Positions 19,099-45,459 of a stretch of 64,000 bases of DNA are shown here, one piece after another. The notes beneath the pieces are model-generated. The model worked only from the letters and a program-made list of their open reading frames with translations, made no database searches and had not been told where the DNA came from. The translations under genes were made by a program, and so were the position numbers. Numbering within the stretch: the first letter of the stretch is position 1; the number at the start of each line of letters is the position of its first letter. The stretch covers positions 9,567 through 73,566 of the forward strand of contig CAVUFH010000004.1 in NCBI GenBank assembly GCA_963740835.1, written 5' to 3'. The stretch is from an uncultured Actinomycetes bacterium (GTDB lineage: Bacteria; Actinomycetota; Acidimicrobiia; IMCC26256; PALSA-610).

Positions 19099-21664
19099 CT
19101 ACGACTCGGTCGAGGAGACGCGCAGGGCCAACACGCAGATGTCGTCGGCCGATGGGGTGGACGCGAACGATCGGTCGACCAGGTTCGCGCAGAGGTCGGC
19201 GAGCGGTTCGCGGCGCGATGTGCGCGTGCGCGACGCGAGCCAGTCCAGCCCTTCGTCGATGAGACGCTCGCGCCGTTCGATCAGCCCGTCGGTGTACAGG
19301 ACGAGCAACGCGCCATCGGTGAGCGTGACTTGCGCGGACGCGAAGTTCTTGCCGAACGTGCCGAGCGGCGTCGCGTTCACGTCTTCGAGGAAGCGCGTGG
19401 TGCCGTCGGCTTCGCACAGGAGCGGCGGCGGGTGACCGGCGCGTGACCACGTGAGCACGCCGGTGTCGGGCTGATAGCACGCGACCACGGCGGTGACCAT
19501 GGAGTCGGGATCGAGCCGGCGGAGCATCTCGTGCGCGCGCTGTAGCAGGTTGGCCGGGTCGGCGTCGTCGACGGCGTAGGCGCGCAAGCCGTTGCGGACC
19601 CGTCCCATCAGGCTCGCGGCCTCGATGCCGTGGCCGGCGACATCGCCGACGACGAGGACGAGCGGGCAGCCGTCGACCGCGAACGCGTCGTACCAGTCGC
19701 CGCCGACCTCTACGGTGACGTCAGCCGGCCGGTAGACGGCAGCCAAGTCGCAGCCGGGCACCGTGGGCAGGCTCTCCGGGACGATTGACTCCTGCAGCAC
19801 CTCGACCATGTGGTGCTCGGCTGCGAGCTGGTACTGACTCAGCTGCCAGAGCTGCGCGCGTTCGAGTGCCGATGCGGCGCGGCGGCCGAGGTCGGTCGCG
19901 AGCTCGAGGTCAGCGTGGCCGAACGGGACCGGGTGGTCGTCGCCGATGAGCACGACGCCGCGCGTCCGGCCCGAAATGGTCAACGCGACAACGATGCCGG
20001 ACACGGGCCGCAGCTGCTCGAGGAGCGCAACGACCTCATCATCGCCTGCGTTCGGGTGTTCGGGAGGAACGAGCACCTCGTCGAGCGCGCCGAACGTCGC
20101 GCCGAGTCCGGAGTCGGCAGCCTTGAGGATCACCTCGCGTCCGCCCACACCGCGGTCGACGAGATCCTGCAGCGCGGGCTGCAACGAGCTCTCCGCGTGC
20201 GCGATCGCGGCCTCGCGCAGCGTCCCGTTCGGCTCGCGCGCGTGCACGATCGCGAAGCGTCCGATGCGCGTGGCCGCGAAGCGCGCGGTGGCGTGCAAGA
20301 CCGCTTCGGGGTCGTCGATAACGGCGAGCTGTTCGGAGAAGTCGAGCAACGTTCGCAGCCGCGCCCGGCTGCGCTGCTCGGCTTCGAGGAGCGACGCGCG
20401 CCCGAGCGCCTGTGCGCATGCTTCCACGACCGCGGCGACGTACCGGCGATCGTCGTCGCTGAACTCGCGCGGTTCGAGGAACCCGAAGGAGACCACCCCC
20501 GGTGTCTCCTCGAACGCGGCCACCGGCACGACCACGAACGAGCCGTGCACTTCCATTCCACCGTACTGCGGGAACCGCTGCACGCGATCCGCAGCCGACT
20601 CCACGAACACCGGTTTCCCGGTGCGGAGCACTTCGGTGGCGGGCAACGTGTCGTCGAGGGAGATGGCCATGAACGGGTCCATCACTCCCTGCGGGTAGCC
20701 CTCGAACGCGCGCGTGACGAGCATGTTGTTCGCGCTGTCGAGCGAACCGAACCATCCGTAGTCGCCGTCGAGTGCTTCCAAAGCCGTGGTGGACGATCGT
20801 CACCGCGACCTCGTCGACGGTCGCCGCGCCCGAGAGTGCAAGTGTCAGTTCGCTGAACTGGCGCAGCAAGCGGGTGGACCGCTCGGCCTGTTGCCGCGCT
20901 CCTCGTTCGCCGTCGAGCAACGCGGCGCGTTCGGCTTCGGCATGGTGACGGGTGTCGATGTTGATCGACACCCCGGTTGCGCCGGTGATGACACCGTTCG
21001 CATCGCGCACCGGTTCGCCGCGGCCTTCGAGCCAATGAAGAGAGCCGTCCTTCCAGACGATGCGGTGGTCGAAACGCCACGGCGTGCCATCGTCCATTCC
21101 CTTGCGCACCGAGGCGAGTGTGCGCTCGCGGTCGTCAGGGTGGAGGAGCGACGCGTACGTCTCGAATTGGCCATCGAAGGATCCAGGTGCGAGTCCGTAG
21201 AGCGCTTCGAGACGCGCGTCCCACACGACGCGTCCACTGTGGAGATCCCAATGCCACGTTCCCATTTCGCCCGCTTCCAGCGCGAGTGCGAGTCGTTGCG
21301 CGGTTCGCGCCGCACCGATCGTCCGGTCGAGTTCGGCTTCGCGACGCTCCCGCATGCCCGTGAGGAGTGTGGCGCCGATAGCCCCCACGACCACGATGAC
21401 GATGCGGACGATGTGATCGCTTTCCCCGAAGATGCCGTCGACGCTCCCGAGGACGATCGCCAGCACCACGGCGACGACGCCGAGTGCGGCGACGTCTCGC
21501 GTTCTCGCTCCGAAAGCGGCGACGAACGGTCCGAGGATCAGTGCACCGATGAGGGCCGTGTCCTGCGAGACCGTGTCGGCGACGACGACCAGCGCCGTCG
21601 CCAGCAGTCCTGCCGCAACCCACCACCACGACCGCGAAACGGCGCGAGGAGGGCCCGGCAGCAT
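19099..21664 (-). CDS. Membrane-anchored PAS-GAF-GAF-SpoIIE (PP2C) phosphatase; frameshift near 20781
   Basis: N-terminal TM helices, PAS (GTWHWDL, LHPDDRE, RIVWKDGSLHWLEGRG) in ORF 20039..21664 continuing into ORF 19099..20781 with GAFs and VGGDWYD, GDVAGHG, AGHPPP, YTDGLIE, DDICVL. Confidence 0.9.
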
Positions 21665-21748
21665 GCCTGCAGACTAGTTGTGGGGTCTCGATCGATCGTG
21701 TGCGCAGGAGTCCGGTTGAAGATCGCGCCATGTCGGTACGATTTGCGA

Positions 21749-22144
21749 GTGGCGTCGATCGACCTACCTCCGGAACGATCGGCTGCGGCGCAAGCCCGCC
21801 GGTTCGTGCGTGAGGTCTGCGCGAGCTGGGATCTCGTTCAAGAGGTGATCGACGACATCGAATTGCTCGTGTCGGAGCTCGTCACGAACGCCGTCCTGCA
21901 CGCGCGCTCGGCAGCCCGGCTGACGATCGAGCGGTTCGGCGATTGCATCCGGGTGACCGTGGCCGACAGCAGCGCGGCACCGCCGCGCTTGCGCGACTAC
22001 GGGCCCGAAGCCGCGACCGGCAGAGGTGTTCTGCTCGTCGACCGCCTCGCGCGCGGATGGGGCGTCGATCCCGCCGACGGCGCGGGGAAGCGGGTGTGGT
22101 TCGAGGTCGCGGTGGAGCCGGCGAGTGAAGGGTCCCGCGCGTGA
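21749..22144 (+). CDS. RsbW-like ATP-binding protein (HATPase_c, anti-sigma factor/kinase)
   Basis: ARRFVR, LLVSELVTNAVLHA, VTVAD, GRGVLLVDRLA..WGV, GKRVWF; GTG at 21749. Confidence 0.9.
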   Translation: MASIDLPPERSAAAQARRFVREVCASWDLVQEVIDDIELLVSELVTNAVLHARSAARLTIERFGDCIRVTVADSSAAPPRLRDYGPEAATGRGVLLVDRLARGWGVDPADGAGKRVWFEVAVEPASEGSRA

Positions 22145-22623
22145 GTGCGTCACAGACCCGACCGGCAACCGCCGACGTCGTGCTCGCCGGGTGCCCGATC
22201 GACCTGTTGGAACGATCGCGCCGGCACAACGAGTCGCTGATGCGCGAGTTCGCGTTCATCGCCGAGTCGGACCAGGAACGCGCAGAGCTGCCGGCGCGGT
22301 TGCTCGCGCTCGTCGACCAGGCCCGGGCCCGGCTCGCGGGGTTGAACGTGGCAGTCGAGGAGCAGCTCGCGGCCGCGCGTGCTCGCGGCGACGACGTCTG
22401 TGACCTCCGCGTCACGCTTCCGTCCAACGGACGCGCGCTCGCGGTCCAGCTCTCCAGCCTGTTCGAAGAAGCCGAGGAGTTCTGCCGCCGCGGCGACCTC
22501 CTCACGCTCGCCGAATCCGACGAGCCCCGCCGGTTCCGCGCCTGGTACCTCGACCAGTACGTGCGTCAGCTCGACGGCGAGGCGCCGACCGCCTGGCCGG
22601 CGGGGCGCGCCAGCCGCGTCTGA
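22141..22623 (+). CDS. Hypothetical helical protein coupled to the RsbW-like gene
   Basis: GTGA overlap with upstream gene; typical codon usage; no recognised catalytic motif. Confidence 0.7.
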   Translation: MSASQTRPATADVVLAGCPIDLLERSRRHNESLMREFAFIAESDQERAELPARLLALVDQARARLAGLNVAVEEQLAAARARGDDVCDLRVTLPSNGRALAVQLSSLFEEAEEFCRRGDLLTLAESDEPRRFRAWYLDQYVRQLDGEAPTAWPAGRASRV

Positions 22624-22660
22624 CCGGGCCGCGGCCGCGGGCTCCGGCGTTCGCGCGCCT

Positions 22661-23008
22661 TCACGGTTCTATCGTGAAGAGCTCGGCGACGCCCGCCACT
22701 TCGAGCACGCGGGTGACGCGTGACTGCGGGTGCCGCAGCACGAACCCCGATCCCTGGCTGTCGAAGCGCTTCTTCGCCTGGATCAGCAGGCTGATGCCGC
22801 TGGAGTCGAGGAAGTCGATGCCGGCCATGTCGAGCACGAGCGTGCGGGCGTCGCCTTGCGCGATCTCGAGGAGCGCGGCGCGCAGCCGGACAGCGGTGCC
22901 GTACTCCAGCTCGCCGCCGATCGTGACGACCGCGGCGCGGTCCTCGTGCTGGATCGAGAGTGACAGTTCGACCTCGGGCACGGATTCCACAGGCGCGGAG
23001 CGTAGCAA
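22661..23008 (-). CDS. STAS domain anti-sigma factor antagonist
   Basis: GGELEY, LVLDMAGIDFLDSSGISLL, RVLEVAG; start may be near 22982. Confidence 0.9.
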   Translation of the reverse strand: MLRSAPVESVPEVELSLSIQHEDRAAVVTIGGELEYGTAVRLRAALLEIAQGDARTLVLDMAGIDFLDSSGISLLIQAKKRFDSQGSGFVLRHPQSRVTRVLEVAGVAELFTIEP

Positions 23009-23034
23009 GCCACTCCGTGGGTAGCGTGCGCCGT

Positions 23035-25870
23035 ATGACGCTCGACTCGTACCGCGCGCGTTCGGATCTCGCGGTCGGCGACGACAAGTACGGTATCTTC
23101 CGCCTCGACGCCGCGGTCGACGACCCCGGTCGCCTCCCGTACTCGCTTCGCATCCTCCTCGAGAACCTGCTCCGGCGCGAGGACGGCGCCAACATCACGG
23201 CCGACGACATCGCCGCGCTCGCCGACCGGCAACGCGCCCGCGGCGAGGTTGGTGCGCGCGAGCTCGCGTTCATGCCCGCGCGCGTCCTCATGCAGGACTT
23301 CACCGGTGTCCCTGCGATCGTCGACCTCGCGGCGATGCGTGATGCGGTGGTGGGGCTCGGCGGCCGCGCCGATCGGGTCGAGCCAACGATCCCGGTCGAT
23401 CTGGTGATCGACCACTCGATCGTCGTCGACGTCGCCGGCATCGCCGATGCGTTCGCACGCAACGTCGCGCTGGAATACGGGCGCAACGAGGAGCGCTACA
23501 CGTTCTTGCGCTGGGCGCAGGACGCGTTCCGCACACTGCCGCGTGTTCCCGCCGAGCCAGGGCATCTGTCACCAGGTGAACCTGGAGTTCCTCGCCCAGG
23601 TCGTGTTCCGCGACGGCAACGGCGTGGCCTATCCCGACACGCTCGTCGGGACCGACTCGCACACGCCGATGGTGAACGGGCTCGGCGTCCTCGGCTGGGG
23701 AGTCGGCGGCATCGAGGCGGAGGCCGCGATGCTCGGACAGCCGCTCTCGTTGCTCCTGCCCGCGGTCGTCGGGATCGAGCTGCGGGGTGCCCTTCCCGAG
23801 GGCGCGACCGCCACCGACCTCGTGCTGACCGTCGCGCAGCTCCTGCGCAAGCACGGCGTCGTCGGCAAGTTCGTCGAATTCTACGGCGAGGGCGTGGGCC
23901 GGGTGCCGGTCGAGAACCGGGCGACCATCGGGAACATGTCGCCCGAGTACGGCTCCACGTGCACAATCTTTCCGGTCGACGACGAGACGCTGCGTTACTT
24001 GCGCGGCACGGGCCGACCCGCCGATCTCGTCGCGCTCGTCGAGGCCTACGCCAAGGAGCAGGGCCTCTGGCACGAGCCGTCGGTGCGGCCGGTGTACGAC
24101 GAGTCGCTCGTCCTCGATCTCTCGACCGTCGAGCCGTCGCTCGCAGGACCGTCGCGCCCGCAGGACCGCGTCGCGCTCTCGGCCGCCCGCGTCGAGTTCG
24201 AGCGGGCGCTGCTCGCGTTCCGCCAGGCATCCGGTGATGCGGAACCCGGCGATGTGTTCGCGGTGCGGCCTGGGACCGCCGACGACGCGTCGGCCGAGTC
24301 GTTCCCCGCGAGTGATCCGCCCGCGGCGTCCGAAGGCATGACCAGTGTGGGTGAACCCGACACGCAGGCGCCGCCCGGCTCGGGAACCCGGCCGGTCTCG
24401 ATCGAGCGTCGTCGCTGCCCGGTCACGCTCACCGATGGCACCGAGACGGAAGTCGCCGACGGACACGTCGTGATCGCCGCGATCACGTCCTGTACGAACA
24501 CGTCGAACCCGTCGGTGATGATCGGTGCGGGCTTGCTGGCGCGCAACGCGGTCGCGCGCGGACTCACGGTCCCGCCGTGGGTGAAGACGTCACTCGCGCC
24601 CGGGTCGTTGGTCGTCACCGACTACTACGAGCGCGCGGGCCTGCTCGATCCGCTCGCGCAGCTCGGGTTCCAGGTCGTCGGCTACGGCTGCACCACCTGC
24701 ATCGGGAACTCCGGGCCGCTCGACGCCGAGATCTCGCGCGTGGTGACCGAGAGCGATCTCTCGGTGTGCTCGGTGCTCTCCGGCAACCGCAACTTCGAAG
24801 GACGCATCCACCCGGACTGCCGGATGAACTACCTCGCGTCGCCGCCGCTCGTCGTCGCATACGCGCTCGCGGGCACGATGGACATCGATCTGCGCAACGA
24901 CCCGCTCGGGACCACTGCCGACGGGGATCCCGTGTTCCTTCGCGACATCTGGCCGACCTCGGAGGAGATCGCGCGCGTCGTGGGCGATGTCATCGAGACC
25001 GACATGTACACGCGCCGCTACGCGCAGGTGCTCGACGGCGACGATCGCTGGCGCGCGCTCCCTGCCCCGACGGGCGAGCGCTTTACCTGGGTCGACACGT
25101 CCACCTACATCCGCAAGCCGCCGTTCCTCGAAGGCGTCGGTACCGAGCCCGTGCCGCCGACCGACATCGAGGGCGCACGGGTGCTCGCGCTCCTCGGAGA
25201 CAGCGTCACGACGGATCACATCTCGCCCGCGGGTGTGATCCGGCGCGACGGGCCGGCCGCGCAGTGGTTGATAGACCAGGGTGTCGCGGTGTCGGAGTTC
25301 AACTCCTACGGCGCACGGCGCGGGAACCACGAGGTCATGGTGCGCGGCACCTTCGCGAACGTGCGACTGCGCAATCAGCTCGCGCCCGGCACCGAAGGCG
25401 GGTTCACCGTGCACCTGCCCGACGGCGAGCAGACGACGATCTACGACGCCTCGGTGCGCTACGCCGACGAAGGCGTGCCGCTGGTCGTGCTCGCGGGCAA
25501 GGAGTACGGATCCGGGAGCTCGCGCGACTGGGCCGCGAAGGGCTCGCAGCTGCTCGGCGTGCGGGCGGTCATCGCGGAATCGTTCGAACGCATCCACCGG
25601 TCGAACCTCGTCGGGATGGGTGTGCTCCCGCTCGAGTTCCGCGCGGGGGAGTCGGCGGGCACGCTCGGGTTGACCGGTCACGAGGTGTTCCGGTTCACCG
25701 GCGTCGCCGCGCTCGCCGAGGACGGTCCGCTCCCGCGCAGAGTGTGGGTGTCGGCGGGCGACCGCGAGTTCGAGACGATCGCGCGCATCGACACGCCGTT
25801 CGAGCGCGACGTGTTCCTCGCAGGCGGCATCTTGCCGTACACGTTGCGGCGGTTGGTGCGCGACGCCTAG
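23035..25870 (+). CDS. acnA: Aconitate hydratase A; frameshift near 23539
   Basis: [29 protein letters not shown] then [65 protein letters not shown]. Confidence 0.96.
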
Positions 25871-25923
25871 TTCGGCACCGCGTCTCGCGCGGTCGTTTGG
25901 CCACGCTGCGTGTCTGACGCGGG

Positions 25924-25950
25924 GTTTCATCGGCGTGAACGACGAGGTAA
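25924..25950 (+). promoter_or_regulatory. Putative SigF/SigB-type promoter
   Basis: GTTT-N17-AGGTAA (one mismatch to GTTT-N15-17-GGGTA), 9 nt before the STAS gene start. Confidence 0.45.
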
Positions 25951-25959
25951 ACAGGTGCC

Positions 25960-26358
25960 GTGACGCATCCAGCGGCCGAAGTCTCCGTGGACGACCATCT
26001 CGGCGTCCGCATCGCGCGGGTCGGCGGTGTGCTCGACGTGTTCTCCGCGGGTGTCGTCGGTGCTCGCATCCTCGAGGGCCTGCCCTCGGACGCGACCGAA
26101 CTGATCCTCGAGCTCGACCGCATCGAGTTCATGGACTCGGCCGGCGTGAGCGCGCTCGTGCGGTTGCGTGAGCACGCGCGCCTGCGGGAACTGAACGTGC
26201 ACGTGCAACTCGGTGCCGCGCCGCACGTGAACCCGACGGTCGTCTCCGTGCTGCGCCGCGTGTTCGTCGTCGACGACGTCGTCGACCTCTCGGCCGACGA
26301 CGACGAACCGGCCGGCGATCAGTCGGTCGACAGGTCGCCCGTCAGCTCCACCGGCTGA
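25960..26358 (+). CDS. STAS domain anti-sigma factor antagonist
   Basis: VGGVLDV, LILELDRIEFMDSAGVSALV. Confidence 0.87.
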   Translation: MTHPAAEVSVDDHLGVRIARVGGVLDVFSAGVVGARILEGLPSDATELILELDRIEFMDSAGVSALVRLREHARLRELNVHVQLGAAPHVNPTVVSVLRRVFVVDDVVDLSADDDEPAGDQSVDRSPVSSTG

Positions 26359-30472: not shown

Positions 30473-30537
30473 GCGTCGAGCGCGGTCGAAATCTTGCCGC
30501 TATGGCGCGCATCAGCCGAGACAACACAAGAATGTTG

Positions 30538-30610
30538 CGCCCTCGGCAGGATTCGAACCTGCGACTCACGGTTTAGGAAACCGATGCTCTATCCCCTGAG
30601 CTACGAGGGC
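30538..30610 (-). tRNA. tRNA-Arg (anticodon CCT)
   Basis: GCCCTCG acceptor stem, TAGCTCAGGGGATAGAGC D-arm, CGGTT-TCCTAA-ACCG anticodon arm, GGTTCGAATCC T-loop; CCA not encoded. Confidence 0.96.
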
Positions 30611-31052: not shown

Positions 31053-31358
31053 CTATCGCGGTGGTTGTGATTCGTTCGAGGACGGCCGCTTCTCTTGGTA
31101 CTTGCTCAACGCGTCCTCGGTCACCCTCACGATCCGGCGCGCGAGTTGGTTGGAGGCGCCGACCAACTGCTCTGTCATCTTGAACGCGGAATCGATGATC
31201 TTGCGCCGGGGTCCGTCCTCGCTCACGTCGGGGAAGACCCCGTCGACCGTGTCGAGGAATTTCTGCACGGACTCCAACGCCGACTGCTCCGCGTCTTCGA
31301 CCGAGTCGATGATGCGGAGGGCCCCATCGTCTCGCGCGGTCTCTTCGGGGTTAGTCAT
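31053..31358 (-). CDS. Small helical hypothetical protein
   Basis: AAGGAGG RBS before ATG; amphipathic helical 101-aa ORF. Confidence 0.75.
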   Translation of the reverse strand: MTNPEETARDDGALRIIDSVEDAEQSALESVQKFLDTVDGVFPDVSEDGPRRKIIDSAFKMTEQLVGASNQLARRIVRVTEDALSKYQEKRPSSNESQPPR

Positions 31359-31497
31359 GAAGGCCTCCTTGTTCTACGCGGCGGATGCCAATCTTCGATA
31401 CGAGCGAGACTGTCCTTCACGCCGTCGCAGCACCAGAGGCTTAGGACACGTCGCGCGCGTCTCGTGACCTGGGTGGTTCGCCTGCACCCGCGGCCGT

Positions 31498-31932
31498 CTA
31501 AGCCTCGGGGACGACGATGAGTGGCCACTCCGTGAACTCGAGCACGTGCTCCACTTCACTGCCCACGAGCGCTCGGCCCGGACCGCGTCGACCCGTGCGA
31601 CCCATGACGATGAAATCCGGCTGCAGGACTCGCGCGCACTCGAGGATCTGCTCGAAGGGCTCACCGGTGTCGAGCCTGCATTGCAACTCAACGTTCGCCT
31701 CTGTTGCCAGCGCCGCGACCCGTGCGAGCAGTGCCTCGCCGGCGTCGACGAGCCGCTGGCCGGAACCCGCGCCGTCGATTGCACGGTCAACGTGCGCGGC
31801 GAGCCCGGCGTCCTCGACGACGAACAGTGCGTACACCTTGGCGGTCCAGTCGCGGGCGATGCGAAGCGCGAGGTGCGTCGCCGCCATCGCCGCGGGAGAA
31901 CCGTCGACGCAGAGCAGCAGCGTTGTCGTCAT
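31498..31932 (-). CDS. Universal stress protein (UspA family)
   Basis: LLLCVDGSPAA, GEPFEQIL, FIVMGRTG, LVGSEVEHVL...WPLIVVP; ATGA overlap with subunit D gene. Confidence 0.92.
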   Translation of the reverse strand: MTTTLLLCVDGSPAAMAATHLALRIARDWTAKVYALFVVEDAGLAAHVDRAIDGAGSGQRLVDAGEALLARVAALATEANVELQCRLDTGEPFEQILECARVLQPDFIVMGRTGRRGPGRALVGSEVEHVLEFTEWPLIVVPEA

Positions 31933-32540
31933 CGGGGCTCCCTCGTCCGGGCGCGCCGTGCGTACACGACATCCTCCCGCTCGCGCTCTTCGAGCTCGAG
32001 GTCGACACGGCGCAGGGAGTCCGCCAACGCCGGAAGGAGTTGGTGTCGCAGCATGCGCGACCGGCGCCGGGTCGCGCGCACCTCACGCTCGACTTCGTTC
32101 AGGGCGCGCCATGCTGCCGCGTGCTGCACGCCTTGCTCGACTGCCCGGCGGGACGCGCTCGTCGCTGCGAGAATCGCGGCGGTCCCGGCGATCTCGGCGC
32201 CCCGAGCATCGTCGGGAAGCTGGGACACGGCCTCGGCCGGGTAGTACGCACCCATGGAGTTGCGCCACACCAGGTCGACGGATGCAAAGCCGCGCGGGGC
32301 CGCGAGCGACACGACTCGTCGGCCGCGCAGCACGACCGCGCGTGCGGTCCACGCTTGACAGTCCTGCCACGCGTCCTCCCAATCGCGACGCGCGACCCGC
32401 TCGAGCACCACGAGACGACGTTGCTCGCGCGCAAGGACTCGCTCCTTCTGCGCGAGCAACTCGGTGGCCCTGACGGCGGTCTCGAGTCGCTCCGCCAACC
32501 ACAGCCGCCCACCGCGTCCGGGAGGATGTCGAATCCGCAT
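31929..32540 (-). CDS. ntpD: A/V-type ATPase subunit D
   Basis: LLAQKERVL, NSMG, EVRATRRRSRML...LPAL...LELEERERED coiled-coil pattern; position after subunit B. Confidence 0.85.
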   Translation of the reverse strand: MRIRHPPGRGGRLWLAERLETAVRATELLAQKERVLAREQRRLVVLERVARRDWEDAWQDCQAWTARAVVLRGRRVVSLAAPRGFASVDLVWRNSMGAYYPAEAVSQLPDDARGAEIAGTAAILAATSASRRAVEQGVQHAAAWRALNEVEREVRATRRRSRMLRHQLLPALADSLRRVDLELEEREREDVVYARRARTREPR

Positions 32541-32552
32541 CGGGCGCCCGCT

Positions 32553-33953
32553 TCACATCTCGCCCGAGTCGGCGCGGGCGCCGGTCTCGTACCAATGGTC
32601 GAGCACCTCGGGAGGGATCATCGTGAGCTCGCGGCGTGGGAGGACCGACAGCACGTGCCACGCGCGAGTGAACGTCTCGTCGATGCTCAATGTCTCGTCG
32701 GCGCGCTGTGTCACGAGCTCGCGCTCGAAGGCATCGAGGAACACGAGGTACCGCCGGTCCGTCGGTGTCAACGCGTCGGGTCCGACCAGGTCGGCGAGAT
32801 CACCGATCTGCCGAGCTTGCGCGATCGAGGCGTCGAGCTGGGCCGCGACGTCGCGGTGGTCCGCACGGGTCCGTCCCACGCCCACCCCGCGCCGCATCAT
32901 CCGGGACAGCGAGGAGAGCGGATCGATCGGCGGGTACACGCCGCGTGCGGCGATCTCCGGCGACAGCACGAGCTGGCCCTCCGTGATGTACCCGGTCAGG
33001 TCGGGAACGGGATGGGTGATGTCGCCGGCCGGCATCGTGAGCACCGGGATCTGTGTGATCGATCCCGGACGATCGCGCAGGCGGCCGCACCGTTCGTAGA
33101 TGGACGCGAGATCGCTGTAGAGGTACCCGGGATAGCCACGTCGCGCCGGCACGACATCCCGCGCCGATGCAACCTCCCGCACCGCTTCGCAGTAGCTCGT
33201 CATGTCGGCCATGACGACGAGCACGTGATACCCACGATCGAACGCGAGGTGTTCGGCGACCGTGAGCGCGAGGCGCGGCGTCAGCAATCGCTCGGCGATT
33301 GGATCATCGGCTGCGTTCACGAACAGCGCGAGCTCACCGCGGGCGGCGCGCGGCTCGAGCGTGTCGCGCACCATGGCCGCGTCGGCGTGCGTGACACCCA
33401 TCGCCGCGAACACGACGCAGAACGCCTCGCCCGCAACGTGTGCTTGCGCGGCGATCTGGGCGGCGAGCTCGAGGTGCGGGAGACCGCCGACGGAGAACAC
33501 CGGCAGCTTCTGACCCCTGACGAGCGTGGTCATCACATCGAGCGCCGCCACACCGGTCAGCACCGGATCGGCCGGCGTCAGGCGCGCCGTCGGATTGAGT
33601 GGATACCCGGCCACGTCGCGTTCCGGCCCGGCGAGAACCGGTGGACCACCGTCGATCGGCTCGCCGCGGCCGTTCCAGACGCGACCCAGCCACGCCGGGC
33701 TGACCCTGATGCGCGGCGGGCTGCCGAGAAAGGACACGCCGACCTCGGCCGGGCTGATCCCCGCGCTGCCCTCGTACACCTGAACGACGGCGACGTCGCC
33801 CTCGACTTCCAGCACGACGCCCTCCCGTTCGTCACCAGACGCGAGCCGCACGCGTGCCGCCTCGTCCCAGCCGACGCCGCGCGCGCCGCGCACTACCACC
33901 AACGGCCCCTCGACCGAGCTCACGTCCGTGTGTTCGACGGGCGCCTCTCTCAT
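32553..33953 (-). CDS. ntpB: A/V-type ATPase subunit B
   Basis: LVRGQKLPVFS, LAAQIA, TPRLALTVAE, DMTSYCEA, RRGYPGYLYSDLASIYER, DITHPVPDLTGYITEGQ. Confidence 0.97.
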   Translation of the reverse strand: MREAPVEHTDVSSVEGPLVVVRGARGVGWDEAARVRLASGDEREGVVLEVEGDVAVVQVYEGSAGISPAEVGVSFLGSPPRIRVSPAWLGRVWNGRGEPIDGGPPVLAGPERDVAGYPLNPTARLTPADPVLTGVAALDVMTTLVRGQKLPVFSVGGLPHLELAAQIAAQAHVAGEAFCVVFAAMGVTHADAAMVRDTLEPRAARGELALFVNAADDPIAERLLTPRLALTVAEHLAFDRGYHVLVVMADMTSYCEAVREVASARDVVPARRGYPGYLYSDLASIYERCGRLRDRPGSITQIPVLTMPAGDITHPVPDLTGYITEGQLVLSPEIAARGVYPPIDPLSSLSRMMRRGVGVGRTRADHRDVAAQLDASIAQARQIGDLADLVGPDALTPTDRRYLVFLDAFERELVTQRADETLSIDETFTRAWHVLSVLPRRELTMIPPEVLDHWYETGARADSGEM

Positions 33954-35671
33954 CGCATCTCCGCCAACTGTCGACGCGCCGTCTCCGCGATCATCTGCAC
34001 TCCGGCCGCGTCACTCGGGCCCACCGTGTCGCGCGCTCGAATCACCGCGCTCAAGTCGAGCTCTTCGATCTCTGTCGCGGAGATACCCCGATCGAGCAGC
34101 GCGAGGCAGGCGTCGTACAGGCCGAGCACCATCTCGAGGAGCGCGCGCTGCTTCGAGCGATCGCAAAACGCGTCGTTCTCGTTCAGCGAGCTCTGCTGGA
34201 GCACGCCGTCACGCAATAGTCGCGCACCGAGCAAGGTCACCCGCTCGCGATCCGGAAGCGCGCTCGCCCCGACGAGCTCGACGAGCGTTTGGAGTCGTTC
34301 GGCATCGGCCAGCAGCGCGAGCGCCCTCGCCCGTGCCTCCGGCCAACGCTCATCGCCGTGCCGCTCGTGCCACGCCGCGAGCAAGTCGGCGTCGCGCGAG
34401 AACGAGCCGTCCCATGTGACGGCGGGATAGTGGCGCGCGTATGCGAGATCGCGATCGAGTGTCCAGAAGCAGCGCACGAATCGCTGGGTGTGCGCGGTGA
34501 CAGGTTCGGTGAAGTCGCCTCCCGGAGGTGACACCGAAGCGATCACCGTCACCGATCCCGTCCCGCCGCCGAGTGTCTCGACATGGCCGGCGCGTTCGTA
34601 GAAGGCCGCGAGCGATGAGGCCAGGCTGGCGGGATAGCCCTGTTCGGCCGGTAGCTGGCCGGTGCGAGAGGCGAACTCGCGCAACGCCTCTGCCCATCGA
34701 GACGTCGAATCGGCGATGAGGACCGCGTCGTAGCCCATGTCGCGGAAGTACTCCGCCACCGTCATGCCCGTGTAAATGCTCGCCTCGCGCGCCATCATCG
34801 GCATGTTCGACGTGTTCGCGATGAGGACCGTCCGTGCGGCCAACGGTTGCCCCGTCCGCGGATCGGTGAGCCGTGAGAGGTCCTCGAGCACGTCGGCCAT
34901 CTCGTTGCCTCGCTCGCCGCAACCCACGTAGACGATGACGTCGGCGTCGCACCACTTCGCGATCTGTTGGAGCATCATCGTCTTGCCTGTGCCGAACCCA
35001 CCCGGAACCGCCGCGGTGCTTCCGCGTGCAATGGGGTAAAGCAGATCGAGGACACGCTGACCTGTGACGAGCGGCGAGGGATCATCCAGCCGGATGCGGA
35101 AGGGTCGACCGCGCCGCACGGGCCACAACTGCGTCATGGGAACATCGACGCCGTCCACCACCGCGATCGGCCCGTCGGGTTCACGAGGGCCGCCGGGCGC
35201 GATCCGGTCGACGTTCCCCGCGCACCCGCGCGGTACGAGCAGCCGGTGCTCGAATCCCACGCCTTCGCTCACGACGCCCAACACTTGACCTTCGGCGACC
35301 GCGTCACCCACGCCGACGCGTGGCCGGAAGTTCCAGCTGCGACCGTCAGCCTCGGGGGTGCTGCCCGGGCGCAGGAAGACATCGGCCGCCGCCAGCGGCC
35401 GCAGCAGGCCGTCGAAGACACCTCCGAGCAGGCCGGGCCCGAGCCGCGCGGAGAGTGGATGGTGCAAGTCGCGGGCGGGCGCGCCGCATGCGAGTCCGCC
35501 TGTGTACTCGTGGATTTCCGCAGTCGCGCGGGTACCGCGCACGGCGACGACCTCGCCGGCGAGGTGGAGCGCGCCGACCTCGACGAGGTCGAGCAGTGCG
35601 ACATGATCCAGCCCATCGATCTCGACGAGAGAGCCGTTCACACGAACGACTCGCGGCGTGTCGCCGTTCAC
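33950..35671 (-). CDS. ntpA: A/V-type ATPase catalytic subunit A
   Basis: TGQRVLD, P-loop PGGFGTGKT, YVGCGERGNEM, NTSNMP..AREASIYTG, DSTSRWAEALRE, SPPGGDFTEPVT; GTG 35671. Confidence 0.97.
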   Translation of the reverse strand: MNGDTPRVVRVNGSLVEIDGLDHVALLDLVEVGALHLAGEVVAVRGTRATAEIHEYTGGLACGAPARDLHHPLSARLGPGLLGGVFDGLLRPLAAADVFLRPGSTPEADGRSWNFRPRVGVGDAVAEGQVLGVVSEGVGFEHRLLVPRGCAGNVDRIAPGGPREPDGPIAVVDGVDVPMTQLWPVRRGRPFRIRLDDPSPLVTGQRVLDLLYPIARGSTAAVPGGFGTGKTMMLQQIAKWCDADVIVYVGCGERGNEMADVLEDLSRLTDPRTGQPLAARTVLIANTSNMPMMAREASIYTGMTVAEYFRDMGYDAVLIADSTSRWAEALREFASRTGQLPAEQGYPASLASSLAAFYERAGHVETLGGGTGSVTVIASVSPPGGDFTEPVTAHTQRFVRCFWTLDRDLAYARHYPAVTWDGSFSRDADLLAAWHERHGDERWPEARARALALLADAERLQTLVELVGASALPDRERVTLLGARLLRDGVLQQSSLNENDAFCDRSKQRALLEMVLGLYDACLALLDRGISATEIEELDLSAVIRARDTVGPSDAAGVQMIAETARRQLAEMR

Positions 35672-36191
35672 TGCAGCAACTCGTCGATGGCGTCGCCCTG
35701 GTCGGCGACCGCGCGCCGTGCGAGAGCCGGCAACGTGTAGTCGACGCGACGCCCATCGCACTCGGCGATGACGCCACCGCGGCCGGGTGGGTCGCGCGTC
35801 ACGACCGCGTCTGCTCCGAGCTGTGCCCGGGCACGTCCCACGAGACCGTCGAGCAGTCGTGGATAGTCGTGCGCGTCACGCAGCCGGAGCACAGCATCGT
35901 GGACCTGTTCCTCGAGCTCGTCCATCAGCGCACGCTTCGCGAGGAGAACCGTGGCGTTCTGCTCCCGGTGCAACGCGACAAGCTCATGGGCCATCGCCGC
36001 GTCCGTGATCGCCGTCGCATCCCGGCCGGCGCGCTCGACGAGCTCCTCGCCCTGACGGCGCGCGTCATGAACGACTGCGTCGGCGTCGGCGCGCGCCGCG
36101 CCCAGCACGACGTCGGTCTCGGCGGCGACCGCGCGCCGCAGCGCGTCATCGAGCGCGTCGAGCCCCTCAGGCAGCGGCGGGGCCACCGGCA

Positions 36192-36195
<4 letters not shown>
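35668..36195 (-). CDS. A/V-type ATPase subunit E (peripheral stalk)
   Basis: N-terminal Ala/Glu/Arg coiled coil, C-terminal GGVI...GRRVDYTL; operon position. Confidence 0.75.
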
Positions 36196-38263
<2,068 letters not shown>

Positions 38264-38277
<14 letters not shown>

Positions 38278-39188
38278 CGACGAGCTCCTCGCCCGAAGTG
38301 CCGCGACTCACGAGGTCGAGTGCGGCTGCAGCGCGCCACGCGTCGGCCATCCGGCGTGCGACCGCGCCGATCACGATGTCGACTCTGGGTTGTACACCAT
38401 GCAGGAGGCGGTCCCCATCGCGATCGAGGCGCAACCACCAGCTCGACTCGGCCATCCACAGCTGCTCGGCGACCATCTCGGCCCGATCGAGACCGTCGAA
38501 CACCCATCGGGCCTCCTCGGGCAGAGCCCCGATGAAGTCGCGGAGGTTCGACGCCGCGATCGCGCGGTGACCGAGTTGCGGAGCGCGCCGCGCCAGATCC
38601 ATGTCGACGCGATGCTCGCCGGTGGCGAACGTGCGGGCAACGACGAGTGCGGCTGCCCCTGCGCCCCACGCCTCCGCGGCGCTGATCTCGCTCACGCGGC
38701 GCGCCCATTCGAGTCGTAGGTTGCGCAGTATGTCGGCGGGCTCGTCGGATGCCGCCGACGGCCACGAGGGGCGCAACCGCTCGCGCATCCCGCAACGACG
38801 TCGCCTCGCGCACCCGAGGCCAGGCCGTCGCCAGTGCTCCGAGCTCGAACGTCGGGAGCTCATCTCCGCCGGAGAGGTGAACGAGACGGCTCTCGATGTT
38901 CTCGATCTCGAAGTAGCCGGCGAGCACGCGGAGCACAGCCACACCCGATGCCGGCAGCCAACCGGCGAGCACGCGCACATCCCAGACGACCGTTGCCCAA
39001 ATCGCGTGCTGGGCAGCTGCGACCGACGTCGCTGTGGTGAACGCGTCCGCGTACGCCGACCCCCGGAGGCGCTCACGAGCCGCCGCGACCGTCGCCGAGG
39101 TGGCGATCGCACGGGCTCCGTCGCTCCCGAGGCGATGACGATCCAGAAGCCTCGCCCGAACGACCCCGGCGACCCATCCGACGGTCAT
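38264..39188 (-). CDS. Probable A/V-type ATPase subunit C (diverged); frameshift near 38780
   Basis: N-half in ORF 38049..39188 (VRARLL, LRGSAY, FEIENI) and C-half in ORF 38264..39112; translationally coupled, positioned before subunit I. Confidence 0.65.
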
Positions 39189-39637
39189 GCGCTGCGGTCG
39201 CTCCCGCTCTCCGCGAACGACCGCACCCGCGCCACCGCGTCGGCCACCATGGGCGGCATCGCCGCCGCCGCGCTGCGGCGCAAGTCCCCCACTCTGGAAG
39301 CAGCATCGGCGCGGAGCCGCTCGGCATCGCGGTCGACCGCGACGCGACGCTGCGTCGTGGCGACGGCGCGTGCCTTCTCCGCGCGCACACGCGCGTCGGC
39401 GAGGAGGCGATCCCGTTCGCGCGCGGCGACGGTGGCGATCACCGCCGCCTCCTCGACGCGTCGTTGCTCGGCGACGCGCAGCTGCGTTTCGAGTTCGTCG
39501 AGATGCGCGAACACCGCCGCGAGCTCAGCCCGCCGCGCCGCGTCGGCCGTGGTCGGCACGGCCGCACGACTCGCGGGCGCGCCGGGCGGTCCGACCACCC
39601 GTCGGATTCGGTTCCACCAGTCGAGAGGTCCCGGCAC
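39185..39637 (-). CDS. Probable A/V-type ATPase subunit H/G-like coiled-coil protein
   Basis: Ala/Arg/Glu coiled coil, first gene of operon, GAGG RBS, ATGA overlap with next gene. Confidence 0.6.
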   Translation of the reverse strand: MPGPLDWWNRIRRVVGPPGAPASRAAVPTTADAARRAELAAVFAHLDELETQLRVAEQRRVEEAAVIATVAARERDRLLADARVRAEKARAVATTQRRVAVDRDAERLRADAASRVGDLRRSAAAAMPPMVADAVARVRSFAESGSDRSA

Positions 39638-39710
39638 GCTTCATGCACCTCGATTCCTCGCAGCCGACGCGCTCACGAACACCTTGCCTGTCGCGCAATG
39701 CCTGTCATCA

Positions 39711-39724
39711 GGGCCAAAAGTCCC
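39711..39724 (-). promoter_or_regulatory. DosR/DevR-like binding box upstream of the ATPase operon
   Basis: Minus strand GGGACTTTTGGCCC matches the GGGAC-N4-G(G/T)CCC core, about 75 bp before the operon start. Confidence 0.55.
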
Positions 39725-39759
39725 GGCAGTGCGATCACAGTTCCTGGCGACACGGAGTC

Positions 39760-40295
39760 GTCGTGCTCGTGCTCCTGTCCCCACGCGTCGCGGAGGAAGA
39801 GTGCGACGCGGTCGGTCGGACGCTTCGGGCACAGACGAAGCTCGAAGGGAGAGCGGGCCTTCACCAGCTCCGCATCGGGAAGGACGCGGGCCAGGTTCGC
39901 GGCATCGTCGGACGGGTGCAGCAGGTCATAGCGGTGCGCCAGGATCAGGGTGGGCGCCGCGATACGGGCGCGCTCCTGCTGGGTGAGTCCGACCGGTCCC
40001 ACGAGCACACCGTGCATGACCGCGGCGAGCACCTCCGGCGAGAGCGACCGGCATGGAGTGCGCGGTTCAGCGGACCGATCCGAGTCGGTGGAATTCGGCG
40101 AACGAGGTTCGAGCTCGCGCGCAGCACCGGGCTTGCGTCGTGCGCCGCGAGGAGGATCGGCACGAACGCCATGGCCGTCGCGGGAACTGCCCATTCCAAC
40201 ACCGGCATCTCCAACACGAGGCCGCGGACCCGCTCGGGGTGCTGTGATGCCGCGAACAGGCTCACATTGGCTCCCAGTGACAGGCCACCGAGCAA
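39760..40295 (-). pseudogene. Alpha/beta hydrolase remnant (5'-truncated, frameshifted)
   Basis: GGLSLGANV nucleophile elbow, HPERVRGLVLEMP in one frame; PTLILAH..DLLHP...LPDAELV in another; N-terminus absent. Confidence 0.7.
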
Positions 40296-40494
40296 CCCCT
40301 TCGACGTCCCGCAACGCGCGCTCGAGCCCGTCGGCGACCCGACGCCCCTCCGTGCGGTGCACGCCCCGCACCTCGATGTGGGCTCGACCGTCCGTCTTCC
40401 ACGTGTGCCGGCCCGAGGACGCAAAACGACGATCGTTGTCAGGCGAGGACACTTTCGCGACCGTCTGGCGCACACCGGCGAGCGAGAACTCCAC
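40296..40494 (-). pseudogene. N-terminal fragment resembling actinobacterial CtpH/CtpI-like P-type ATPase or related HMA-like domain
   Basis: GRAHIEVRG...LERALRDVEGV then abrupt join to the hydrolase remnant; GGAGG RBS upstream. Confidence 0.4.
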
Positions 40495-40601
40495 CCGTCC
40501 TCCCTATTGGTGACCTGCTGATGCCGTTCGACCCTTCGTCATCGTGGTGGACCCAGCGCGATGAAGGCCCTTCGGCCTGTGCACACCGCGCGTGTCGCGC
40601 G

Positions 40602-41009
40602 TCAGGGAATGACCGCGCCGTACCCGGTGATGACGTCGGGTCGGAGCCGGAGATAGTGCGAAGGCACTGAGGTTCCCGTCGGGAGCGAGAGCCCCAATGT
40701 CTCGATTTCGGCGCGTTCGGCCGTGTCGGTGATTTCCGCGGCTCGGCCGATGACCAGCACCGCCCAGGAGGCTTCCGCGAGGTCGGCGTTGTCGACCCCC
40801 ATGGCGATGACGTTTCCGTCGGCGATGGCGCGTCTGGCTCGACCGTCGCGCATGCCGATGACGACGGTGCCTCCGAGATACTGGTAGCTGACCGGCAGCA
40901 CAACGGGGAGCGCACCCATGGACAGGCTCACCCGGCCGACATTCGTGCCCGCGAGCAGCGCCTGGCAGTCGGCCTCCGAGAGAAGCTGCGCACCGTCATC
41001 AAAGAACAT
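40602..41009 (-). CDS. Pyridoxamine 5'-phosphate oxidase-like FMN-binding protein
   Basis: LSEADCQALL...VGRVSL...PVVLPVSY, WAVLVIGRA, LRPDVITG. Confidence 0.85.
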   Translation of the reverse strand: MFFDDGAQLLSEADCQALLAGTNVGRVSLSMGALPVVLPVSYQYLGGTVVIGMRDGRARRAIADGNVIAMGVDNADLAEASWAVLVIGRAAEITDTAERAEIETLGLSLPTGTSVPSHYLRLRPDVITGYGAVIP

Positions 41010-41048
41010 GCACTGACCGACGATCGTCCGCGGCCACGTGTCTCACTA

Positions 41049-41082
41049 GAGGCGAACGTCACCACTCTGGGACGGTTGTGGC
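41049..41082. promoter_or_regulatory. Pair of degenerate DosR-like boxes between divergent genes
   Basis: GTGACGTTCGCCTC (minus, 41049-41062) and GGGACGGTTGTGGC (41069-41082), 20 bp apart. Confidence 0.3.
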
Positions 41083-44136: not shown

Positions 44137-44164
44137 GACCACCGCGGGCCGGTAAATTCCGCGC

Positions 44165-45459
44165 GTGGCCAAGATCGTGTTCATCGGCGCGGGCAGCACT
44201 GTGTTCGCGCGCAACCTGCTCGGTGACATCCTCGGGCACGAGGAGCTCGCCGACTCCGAGATCGCGCTGTTCGACATCGACGCCGAACGGCTCGAGACCT
44301 CCGCGCTCGTCGCCCGCCGCGTCGCAGATGCACTCGACGCGGAGCCGAAGATCGTCGCGACCACCGACCGGCGGGCCGCGCTCGACGGCGCTGACTACGC
44401 GATCAACATGATCCAGGTCGGTGGCTACGAGCCCGCGACCGTCACCGACTTCGAAGTCCCGAAGCAGTTCGGCCTGCGCCAGACCATCGCCGACACGCTC
44501 GGGGTCGGCGGGATCATGCGCGGCCTCCGGACGATCCCGGTGATGCTCGACATGTGCGCCGAGATGGAGGAGCTCTGCCCCGACGTCTGGTTCCTGAACT
44601 ACACGAACCCTATGGCGATCAACTGCCGCGCCGTGAACCGGGCCACGAGCATCCGGACCGTCGGCCTGTGCCACAGCGTGCAGGGCACCGCCTACGAGCT
44701 CTCCCTCGACCTCGGCATCCCGTACCGCGACATCACCTACCGTGCCGCGGGCATCAACCACATGGCGTTCTACCTCCGGTTCGAGCGCGACGGCGAGGAC
44801 CTGTACCCGCTCTTGCGGCGCGCGCGGAGGCCGGCGCGGTTCCGGAACACAACCGGGTGCGCTACGAAGTGCTGCGCCACCTCGGTTACTTCGTCACCGA
44901 ATCGAGCGAGCACTTCGCCGAGTACGTCCCGTGGTTCGTCAAGCGTGACCGCCCCGATCTCGTCGACCGGTTCAATGTGCCGCTCGACGAGTACCCGCGG
45001 CGGTGCGAGGAGCAGATCGCCGGTTGGGAAGCCGAGCGGACCCGGCTCGAGCGTGGCGACGCGTTCGAAGTGCGGCCGAGCTTCGAGTACGCGGCGACGA
45101 TCATCCGGAGCATCGAGACCGGCAAGCCGCGCGTGATCTACGGCAACGTCGCCAACGACGGTCTGATCGACGATCTCCCCGCGGGGTGCACCGTCGAAGT
45201 GCCCTGCCTGGTCGACGGCAACGGCGTGCAGCCGACCGCGGTCGGCGCGCTCCCGCCGCAACTCGCGGCACTGATCCGCACCAACGTCAACGTGCAGGAG
45301 CTGACCGTCGAGGCCGCGCTCACGGGTCGACGCGACCACGTGTACCACGCCGCGATGCTGGACCCGCACACCGCGGCCGAGCTGGACCTGGACCAGATCC
45401 GCACGCTCGTCGACGCGCTGCTCGCGGCGCACGGCGACCTCGTGCCGCCGCTCACCTGA
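44165..45459 (+). CDS. melA: GH4 NAD-dependent alpha-galactosidase; frameshift near 44825
   Basis: KIVFIGAGSTVF, QVGG, QTIADTLG.GG, LNYTNPM, GLCHSVQ, GINHM then TESSEHFAEY, VEVPCLVD, MLDPHT. Confidence 0.92.

Follow-up and report, generated by a model that had tools for sequence, protein, structure and literature searches.

We analyzed a 64,000-nucleotide stretch of DNA from an uncultured Actinomycetes soil bacterium of the class Acidimicrobiia, which corresponds to positions 9567-73566 of contig C4 of the assembly GCA_963740835.1 (named G000 here; 4.88 Mb, 7 contigs, G+C content of about 69%). This whole stretch is referred to as the window. It carries an operon of ten genes that encodes a rotary ATPase of the V/A type and terminates with a gene for a universal stress protein (USP), and a box of the DevR/DosR type is located upstream of the first gene. 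The explanation that we favor, with moderate confidence, is that this is a DosR-activated operon for an accessory, proton-translocating V/A-type ATPase, which would pump when respiration stops. The physiological role proposed here was deduced from the sequence and from comparison with related loci.

According to the proposed mechanism, a fall in oxygen, or the presence of NO or CO, would be perceived by a haem-GAF kinase and would lead to the phosphorylation of DosR. Phosphorylated DosR would bind the DevR/DosR (OsdR) box and activate the operon promoter, and the operon would in this way be induced under hypoxia. The V/A-type ATPase would hydrolyze ATP derived from substrate-level reactions and pump protons out of the cell, so that cells which neither respire nor grow would hold their membrane potential and cytoplasmic pH. 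The co-translated, nucleotide-binding USP may be an accessory or regulatory partner of the enzyme.

A low-oxygen accessory ATPase had already been suggested in an earlier note made from the sequence of the window. That interpretation is supported by the present analysis, as nothing that refutes it was found when the presence of an F-type operon, the presence of a DosR ortholog and the conservation of the box and the USP were examined. Among its particulars, the operon, the box and a PNPOx-like neighbor were found again, whereas a DosS-like kinase in the window and additional boxes were not. Support for the box comes from three independent lines, namely the regulator encoded in the genome, the conservation of the box and the neighborhood.

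The V/A-type ATPase operon

The ten genes are arranged in the order G/H-like stalk-C-I-K-F-E-A-B-D-USP, all on the minus strand between positions 31498 and 39637 (Table 1). The nine junctions were read from the DNA; eight are overlaps and one, between B and D, is a gap of 12 nt. The overlap is ATGA between the first gene and C, between K and F, F and E, A and B, and D and USP, and GTGA between E and A, while C and I overlap by 14 nt and I and K also overlap. The gene order, the coupling and the USP gene overlapping the stop codon of D, as claimed in the earlier note, were confirmed by these junctions together with the family matches. A terminator scan returned one terminator-like site, within the B gene, a result that carries little information for a genome of 69% G+C.

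The gene identities were assigned using Pfam and NCBIfam, by which A, B, D, I, K and USP were recognized. The catalytic subunit A, which carries PF00006, PF16886 and PF22919, has the A-specific insertion, an intact P-loop (GGFGTGKT) and the motif GERGNEM, and its partner B carries PF00006, PF02874 and PF22919; their NCBIfam scores (669 bits for NF003220 and 603 bits for NF003235) both exceed the cut-offs. Comparison of A with its solved relatives gave E-values of 2.5e-164 for the A subunit of Pyrococcus horikoshii and 2.3e-160 for that of Thermus. In the USP, the PF00582 domain extends over the full length of the model, and the sequence G-x2-G-x9-G-S (MGRTGRRGPGRALVGS) is present, which agrees with the motif G-x2-G-x9-G-(S/T) that we take to be an ATP-binding signature.

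The first gene alone had no match in Pfam or NCBIfam. A profile built from 24 orthologs identified subunit G of the Thermus V/A-ATPase as its best natural match (E about 5e-6), and because the same profile also matched a designed helical bundle (E 7e-8), the evidence is at the level of a coiled coil. For subunit C, a sequence profile gave 0 matches against PDB sequences, and a fold comparison was therefore used instead; the AlphaFold model of an orthologous subunit C (predicted local distance difference test, 91.6) matched Thermus subunit C (1R5Z) and the eukaryotic subunit d with a Foldseek probability of 1.00. Subunit F matched PF01990 below the cut-off (E 0.008) and shows 36-64% identity across orthologous operons. 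Subunit E matched the NCBIfam V-type subunit E model NF002629, also below the cut-off (E 6e-5), and its place is kept in the orthologous operons.

The F-type operon and the DosR/DosS orthologs

A complete F-type operon, with the order atpI-a-c-b-delta-alpha-gamma-beta-epsilon, is present on contig C7. The expectation that an F-type operon would be found elsewhere in the genome was hence borne out, and the V/A-type enzyme is accessory to an F-type one.

The genome also encodes true orthologs of DevR and DevS, likewise expected outside the window, as a pair on contig C3 (about 1,888,700-1,891,056). As NCBIfam gave no DosR-specific match for the response regulator, orthology was tested against PDB sequences. 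The regulator matched Mycobacterium tuberculosis DevR (3C3W) with an E-value of 1.4e-77, the next best match being VraR (3e-43), and the sequence LAEKTVKNYVS is identical in both the C3 regulator and DevR. The adjoining kinase has the domain order GAF-GAF-HisKA_3, and its first GAF domain matches the haem domains of DevS/DosT at about 1e-49. The best NCBIfam match of the regulator was MadR (200.6 bits, below the 300-bit cut-off).

Sixteen of the 175 genome sites with at most one mismatch to the DevR core lie in the 60 kb around the DosRS genes, that is, 0.27 versus 0.036 per kb. The companions of the pair include at least eight USP domains, a PNPOx-like gene, two P-type cation ATPases and a CBS protein, and judging from this gene content the region appears to be a typical dormancy-regulon island. 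The island (about 1,860,000-1,926,000, loci L082-L085) is situated at a contig end, and CYTH-CHAD and flavodoxin-like open reading frames (ORFs) were also observed there.

The earlier note had placed a DosS-like H-box protein in the window. None was found, and the seven HisKA_3 matches of the genome are all located outside contig C4; the only kinase-like match nearby is an RsbW-type HATPase_c_2 ORF at 20762-22141.

The stator subunit I, the c-ring subunit K and the direction of the enzyme

Residues 144-455 of subunit I align with residues 335-650 of Enterococcus hirae NtpI, and the best PDB match is 8WCI (E 7e-14). The membrane domain retains the essential Arg (SFARLAAFG). It is preceded by about 143 residues, compared to about 334 in NtpI and about 264-330 in Thermus subunit I, and it is because of the missing N-terminal half that every NCBIfam model of subunit I scores far below its cut-off. 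The absence of roughly half of the usual N-terminal cytoplasmic domain was observed across the lineage, and it raises the question of the number of peripheral stalks.

Subunit K consists of 136-152 residues in nearly all loci, and its start codon overlaps the stop codon of I. Two hydrophobic helices around an RRRGR loop are followed by a linker rich in Ala, Ser and Thr and by one canonical hairpin with the invariant sequence GLAEGIA(I/V)YG. The carboxylate aligns with the essential Glu of the c subunits of proton V-ATPases, and the next residue is Gly rather than Ser or Thr, which we take to be a sign of proton specificity; translocation of protons is suggested on these grounds. The N-terminal extension of about 80 residues, whose two helices are kept across the lineage, ends in Ala-x-Ala-like motifs, and it could be either a retained extra pair of ring helices or a cleaved leader. 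The predicted model of K shows four helices with a predicted template modeling score of 0.43, at which the packing of the helices is unreliable.

These features have to be considered when asking in which direction the enzyme works. Under the same DosR control, the enzyme could be a second ATP synthase adapted to the low proton motive force of hypoxic slow respiration (e.g., nitrate respiration), an alternative that we regard as rather unlikely but as the strongest competitor. Among solved structures, subunit A is closest to the archaeal A-type enzymes and the V/A enzyme of Thermus, all of which act as ATP synthases in vivo, and K possesses a single canonical hairpin with one carboxylate, like the Thermus subunit K/L. 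If the extension of K, with its Ala-x-Ala-like ends, were cleaved as a leader, a synthase-type c subunit would be left, and the plain hairpin would result in a Thermus-synthase-like gearing. This prospect speaks against a pump, as does the fact that the sequence contains no feature that would settle the direction of the enzyme. On the other hand, an intact F-type synthase is already present, the companions in the same islands are ATP-consuming P-type pumps, and the extension of K is kept as two helices; if it is retained, the ring would contain four helices for each carboxylate, like the rings of pumping V-ATPases. These points are not decisive against a synthase. We infer a pump because this role fits both the company of P-type pumps and the block of ATP hydrolysis in the F-ATP synthase of mycobacteria.

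A more far-reaching version of the pump proposal can be put forward tentatively. The operon may represent an Actinomycetota lineage of V/A-type ATPases of its own, with a half-size cytoplasmic domain of I, a low-gear K and a USP as a subunit, which would be among the central products of the DosR/OsdR dormancy response and serve obligately aerobic soil actinobacteria as an ATP-driven proton pump in anoxic dormancy, when their F-type synthase, blocked in ATP hydrolysis in mycobacteria, would be unable to hold the membrane potential. In such a lineage, the short subunit I may mean fewer peripheral stalks, and a four-helix, one-carboxylate c subunit may give a low H+/ATP gearing.

The DosR-type box and its conservation

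As described in the earlier note, which gave a distance of about 75 bp, a box (GGGACTTTTGGCCC) is found upstream of the first gene. It is separated by 73 nt from the GTG start codon at 39637 and falls within the 3' end of the hydrolase ORF located upstream. The putative -10-like hexamer and the ribosome-binding site between the box and the start codon are given in Table 1. A scan for consensus sigma-70 promoters found no promoter-like site, which is uninformative at 69% G+C.

Because the perfect core was not enriched genome-wide, local density and a position matrix were used to evaluate the sites. The matrix was deduced from ten boxes of contig C3, nine in the DosRS island and one beside a USP pair at 0.31 Mb. 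Outside this training set, a 19.2-bit box was observed about 100 nt upstream of a tandem-USP gene on contig C7 (946649-947541), which indicates that the matrix finds plausible targets. The "more degenerate boxes" reported in the vicinity of the operon were not recovered, as no site of at least 11 bits other than the operon box is present in the 64 kb.

The comparison was extended to 80 loci retrieved by means of the A subunit (58-65% identity); at least 547 relatives exist. They originate from Streptomyces, metagenome-assembled genomes (MAGs) of Mycobacterium, Lentzea, Actinoallomurus, Nocardia, Dactylosporangium, Kitasatospora, Actinoplanes and many uncultured Actinomycetota, and the order C-I-K-F-E-A-B-D is common to them. 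Using tblastn with the first gene, the hydrolase and a downstream ORF of 106 residues from the window, no match was obtained in the 80 loci; the first gene was then recovered by its position.

The 400 nt upstream of the first gene were scanned with the matrix, and 2782 windows served as controls. Sites of at least 10 bits were detected in 31 of 68 orthologous operons versus 84 controls (3%), sites of at least 12 bits in 19 versus 37, and sites of at least 16 bits in 5 versus 2. The positions of the ortholog boxes cluster 520-560 nt before the start of C, the boxes are spread over most clades of the A-subunit tree, and five of the six perfect-core matches in the 1.2 Mb of loci fall at this upstream place. 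All four further operons from the same class have the USP gene after D and an upstream site of 10.2-17.0 bits, and in two operon-bearing genomes of the family the upstream sites score 10.2 and 14.8 bits. The Streptomyces sites AGAGCCGAACGGCCCT and CGGGCCGATCGGCCCA match the OsdR consensus AGGGCCGATCGGCCCT, which was demonstrated by electrophoretic mobility shift assay in S. coelicolor (PMC5069765).

The closest relative, G311, whose A subunit is 76% identical, has a different upstream gene (the end of an EAL-domain gene, as judged by eye). The right half-site and its flank (GGCCCTGAT), a -10-like CAAGCT, the GAGGTG and the start codon (ATG in G311) nevertheless align with those of the window, and it can be concluded from this alignment that the box belongs to the operon promoter.

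The linkage to USP and DosR genes is conserved as well. A USP gene directly follows D in 18 of the 76 evaluable loci (and also in L030, which was dropped by the length rule), L066 being an example of a locus with this arrangement, and a USP domain is present somewhere in 56 of the 76, at 0.100 per kb compared to 0.0043 per kb in the genome studied here (about 23-fold). Four Streptomyces loci (L009, L070, L046 and L055) have a full-length DosR ortholog at a distance of at most 2.5 kb upstream of the operon, and partial DosR matches were found in four more loci. Three loci (L009, L053 and L026) contain DosS-like genes, and 12 contain CtpF-like P-type ATPases. A lack of the box and of USP linkage in homologous operons would, according to the earlier note, have refuted its reading; the counts given here show that both are conserved.

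A perfect DevR core was also observed upstream of an operon of this lineage in L032 (CAZAQV010000063.1, 8.4 kb), which is assigned to a myxobacterial MAG (labeled Polyangiales); either an actinobacterial contig was binned wrongly, or the operon was transferred to another phylum.

Several findings have to be set against DosR control. The box pattern of the earlier note is expected 0.69 times per window by chance. The box GGGACTTTTGGCCC ranks 32nd in the genome, where 32 positions reach at least 14 bits versus 15.6 expected from Markov simulations, and the eight perfect GGGAC-N4-GTCCC cores of the genome are within the range of the permuted half-site controls, i.e., without enrichment. In 37 of the 68 orthologous operons, no site reaches 10 bits at the corresponding place, the related loci are non-independent samples, and the G311 box (10.2 bits) has a degenerate left half-site, TGGTC. 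Furthermore, one operon carrier, G293 (96% complete), has no DosR at E <= 1e-55. Taken alone, the box is not significant, and the argument for it is comparative.

It could accordingly be supposed that the box is a chance or non-DosR palindrome and that the operon is controlled in another way, e.g., by another regulator of the NarL family, by a sigma factor of the stationary phase, or in response to pH or salt stress, the USP neighbors being part of a general stress island. The score at the chance level of the genome, the lack of a site in over half of the orthologs, the position inside the end of an upstream ORF and the abundance of GC-rich palindromes in these genomes are all in line with such a view. 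We nevertheless consider it improbable, as distant clades whose flanking sequences differ keep the box at the same position, independent sites by the DosRS genes were used to train the matrix, which gives 10 bits in only 3% of the controls, the Streptomyces sites match an experimentally supported OsdR consensus (PMC5069765), and DosR genes adjoin the operon in several genomes.

The frameshift in subunit C

Using tblastn with intact orthologs, subunit C was found to be split between two frames, 39179-38778 (up to residue 137 approximately) and 38629-38267. The break near 38.78 kb is outside any long homopolymer. Subunit C is intact in all 20 orthologs checked, and both halves share one frame in G311. 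The enzyme may therefore be dead in the source strain, which would be at odds with the function that we propose. However, frameshifts in this assembly also interrupt the F1 beta gene (G000 C7:74000-74642) and the neighboring alpha/beta-hydrolase gene (window 39673-40540), and an alcohol dehydrogenase (ADH) gene is split in a same-genus assembly. The assembly thus probably carries indel errors, and such an error in subunit C is at least as likely as a real pseudogene. In addition, a GH4 glycosidase with a truncated C-terminal domain was observed at 44156-45133.

The stretch is partly present in eight soil-metagenome DNA runs, with a best share of 0.28; no RNA run was among the listed runs that contain it. 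Contigs from four soil-metagenome runs provided thin pieces of 151-374 nt without insertions or deletions. In the bin 38768-39074, beside the break, their depth is 0 in X1 and 0.04 in X2, which is too thin to decide on the frameshift.

It could also be supposed that the operon of this genome, with its broken rotor subunit C, has lost its function and is decaying as what is left of an island gained by horizontal transfer, as the break outside a long homopolymer and the rarity of the operon in the family (2 of 27 genomes, and not found in the 71%-complete same-genus genome) might indicate. This is doubtful, since the split F1 beta, hydrolase and same-genus ADH genes fit indel errors of long-read assembly and the other nine genes are open with intact overlapping junctions.

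Distribution

The operon was found in 10 of the 300 sampled genomes of the class, four of them with an operon of this lineage (62-64% identity) and six with a distant one (about 50%). In the family it is present in 2 of 27 distinct genomes, and it was not found in the one same-genus genome available (71% complete). Together with the 80 loci, this indicates that the lineage is widespread but patchy in Actinomycetota. DosR is commoner than the V/A-type operon, being detected at E <= 1e-55 in 165 of 301 genomes, a tally that includes the unpublished genomes G254 and G272, and it is present in nine of the ten operon carriers. A search of 20 family genomes for the flanking genes, a GFO-type oxidoreductase and a zinc ADH, gave no insertion borders, as these genes are mostly on separate contigs, or 38 kb apart in G290. 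A tRNA-Arg(CCT) gene (window 30537-30610, minus strand), located 0.9 kb downstream of the USP gene, is a possible integration landmark.

Comparison with known systems

The full subunit set appears to be shared with the Thermus thermophilus V/A-ATPase (A3B3-D-F-d-c12-a-E2G2), although the peripheral-stalk pair E and G/H was assigned by weak similarity. The similarity comprises the match of A, the fold of C, the profile match of G, the single-hairpin core of K with one Glu, and the essential Arg of I, which is kept in both. The gene order of the window, G-C-I-K-F-E-A-B-D-USP, differs from that of Thermus. Unlike the Thermus enzyme, that of the window has a shorter N-terminus of I and two extra helices in K, and it is accessory to an F-type enzyme, linked to a USP and preceded by a DosR-type box.

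The ntp-encoded Na+-V-ATPase of E. hirae is likewise a bacterial V-type enzyme, and among PDB entries the membrane domain of I matches it best. It coexists with an F-type ATPase and is a stress-induced, ATP-driven ion pump. It differs in being a Na+ pump with a duplicated, four-helix K containing a Na+ site, in its regulator and in the phylum of its host; K of the window has one hairpin with a non-homologous extension and no Ser or Thr after the Glu.

The regulatory part resembles the DevR/DosR regulon of M. tuberculosis and the regulon that OsdR controls in S. coelicolor, with a DevR ortholog, a haem-GAF kinase, the same family of boxes, and USPs, PNPOx-like proteins and P-type ATPases as companions. 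A rotary ATPase is, however, not among the described members of these regulons. The words "ATPase" and "ATP synthase" occur 0 times in the accessible part of the OsdR paper (PMC5069765), whose supplementary site lists, not covered here, could name further targets, and 0 times in the accessible part of a paper on the M. avium DosR regulon (PMC11876180). In the literature searched, no paper linking a V/A-type ATPase with DosR, DevR or OsdR was found. A gain of A/V-type ATP synthase genes has been described for a genus of the Micromonosporaceae, in the accessible text without regulation or function (PMC12451618). The N-ATPase is likewise encoded by an additional rotary ATPase operon that has spread horizontally and accompanies the housekeeping synthase, and it has been proposed to be an ion pump (PMC2881411), but it is of the F type, is found in other hosts, uses another ion and has no link to DosR or USP.

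How non-fermenting, obligately aerobic actinobacteria keep a membrane potential and pH gradient in anoxic dormancy is an open question of soil microbiology, which also bears on the biology of mycobacterial persistence. If correct, our proposal would answer this question in a concrete and testable way for the many soil carriers among Streptomyces, Actinoallomurus, Lentzea, Nocardia-type and uncultured lineages. The regulon, of which mainly USPs, nitroreductase-like proteins and chaperones are known so far, would gain a machine for energy conservation. Cultivable carriers such as Streptomyces toyocaensis NRRL 15009 (L050) and strains of Lentzea and Actinoallomurus are available, and the hypothesis is thus open to a direct test. 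In its short subunit I, its extended c subunit and the USP as the tenth gene, the lineage departs from the solved V/A-ATPases, and the complex would be a worthwhile target for cryo-electron microscopy.

Features of the operon and neighboring genes

The coordinates of the operon, of the predicted promoter elements and of the two upstream genes are presented in Table 1.

Table 1. V/A-type ATPase operon, upstream elements and adjacent genes in the window.
Feature	Position	Strand	Basis
First gene (labeled "H?" in the earlier note), putative G/H-type peripheral-stalk coiled-coil subunit, 150 aa	39185..39637	-	Ortholog profile
Subunit C (d-like rotor socket), frameshifted	38264..39188	-	Ortholog fold
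Subunit I (a-type stator), 473 aa	36856..38277	-	Pfam/NCBIfam, NtpI alignment
Subunit K (c-ring proteolipid), ~151 aa	36410..36865	-	Pfam/NCBIfam
Subunit F, 73 aa	36192..36413	-	Position and weak similarity
Subunit E (peripheral stalk), 175 aa	35668..36195	-	Weak family match and position
Catalytic subunit A, GTG start overlapping the E stop	33950..35671	-	Pfam/NCBIfam
Subunit B, 466 aa	32553..33953	-	Pfam/NCBIfam
Subunit D (central stalk), 203 aa	31929..32540	-	PF01813, E 4e-22
Single-domain universal stress protein, 144 aa, start overlapping the D stop (ATGA)	31498..31932	-	PF00582, E 3e-22
DevR/DosR-type box GGGACTTTTGGCCC	39711..39724	-	14.1 bits, one mismatch to GGGAC-N4-GTCCC
-10-like hexamer CAAGGT, 24 nt downstream of the box	39681..39686	-	Read from the DNA, putative promoter element
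Ribosome-binding site GAGGTG, 8 nt before the GTG start	39646..39651	-	Read; TCGAGGTGC identical in G311
Alpha/beta-hydrolase ORF, split over two frames, outside the conserved operon	39673..40540	-	Context
PNPOx-like FMN protein (Pyridox_ox_2, PF12900)	40602..41042	-	Pfam

The PNPOx-like FMN protein that had been named as a neighbor was identified by its PF12900 domain, and a weak box of 8.3 bits (41046-41065) is located just upstream of its gene. Downstream of the USP gene, at a distance of 125 nt and on the same strand, a small acidic ORF of 106 residues was observed (31053-31373, minus strand), which has no family match. Farther away, a partner-switching module flanks an aconitase gene at 19102-26355. 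Its parts are a GAF-GAF-SpoIIE (PP2C) phosphatase (19102-20799, minus strand), the RsbW-like HATPase_c_2 protein mentioned above (plus strand) and two STAS proteins (22664-23194, minus strand, and 25951-26355, plus strand).

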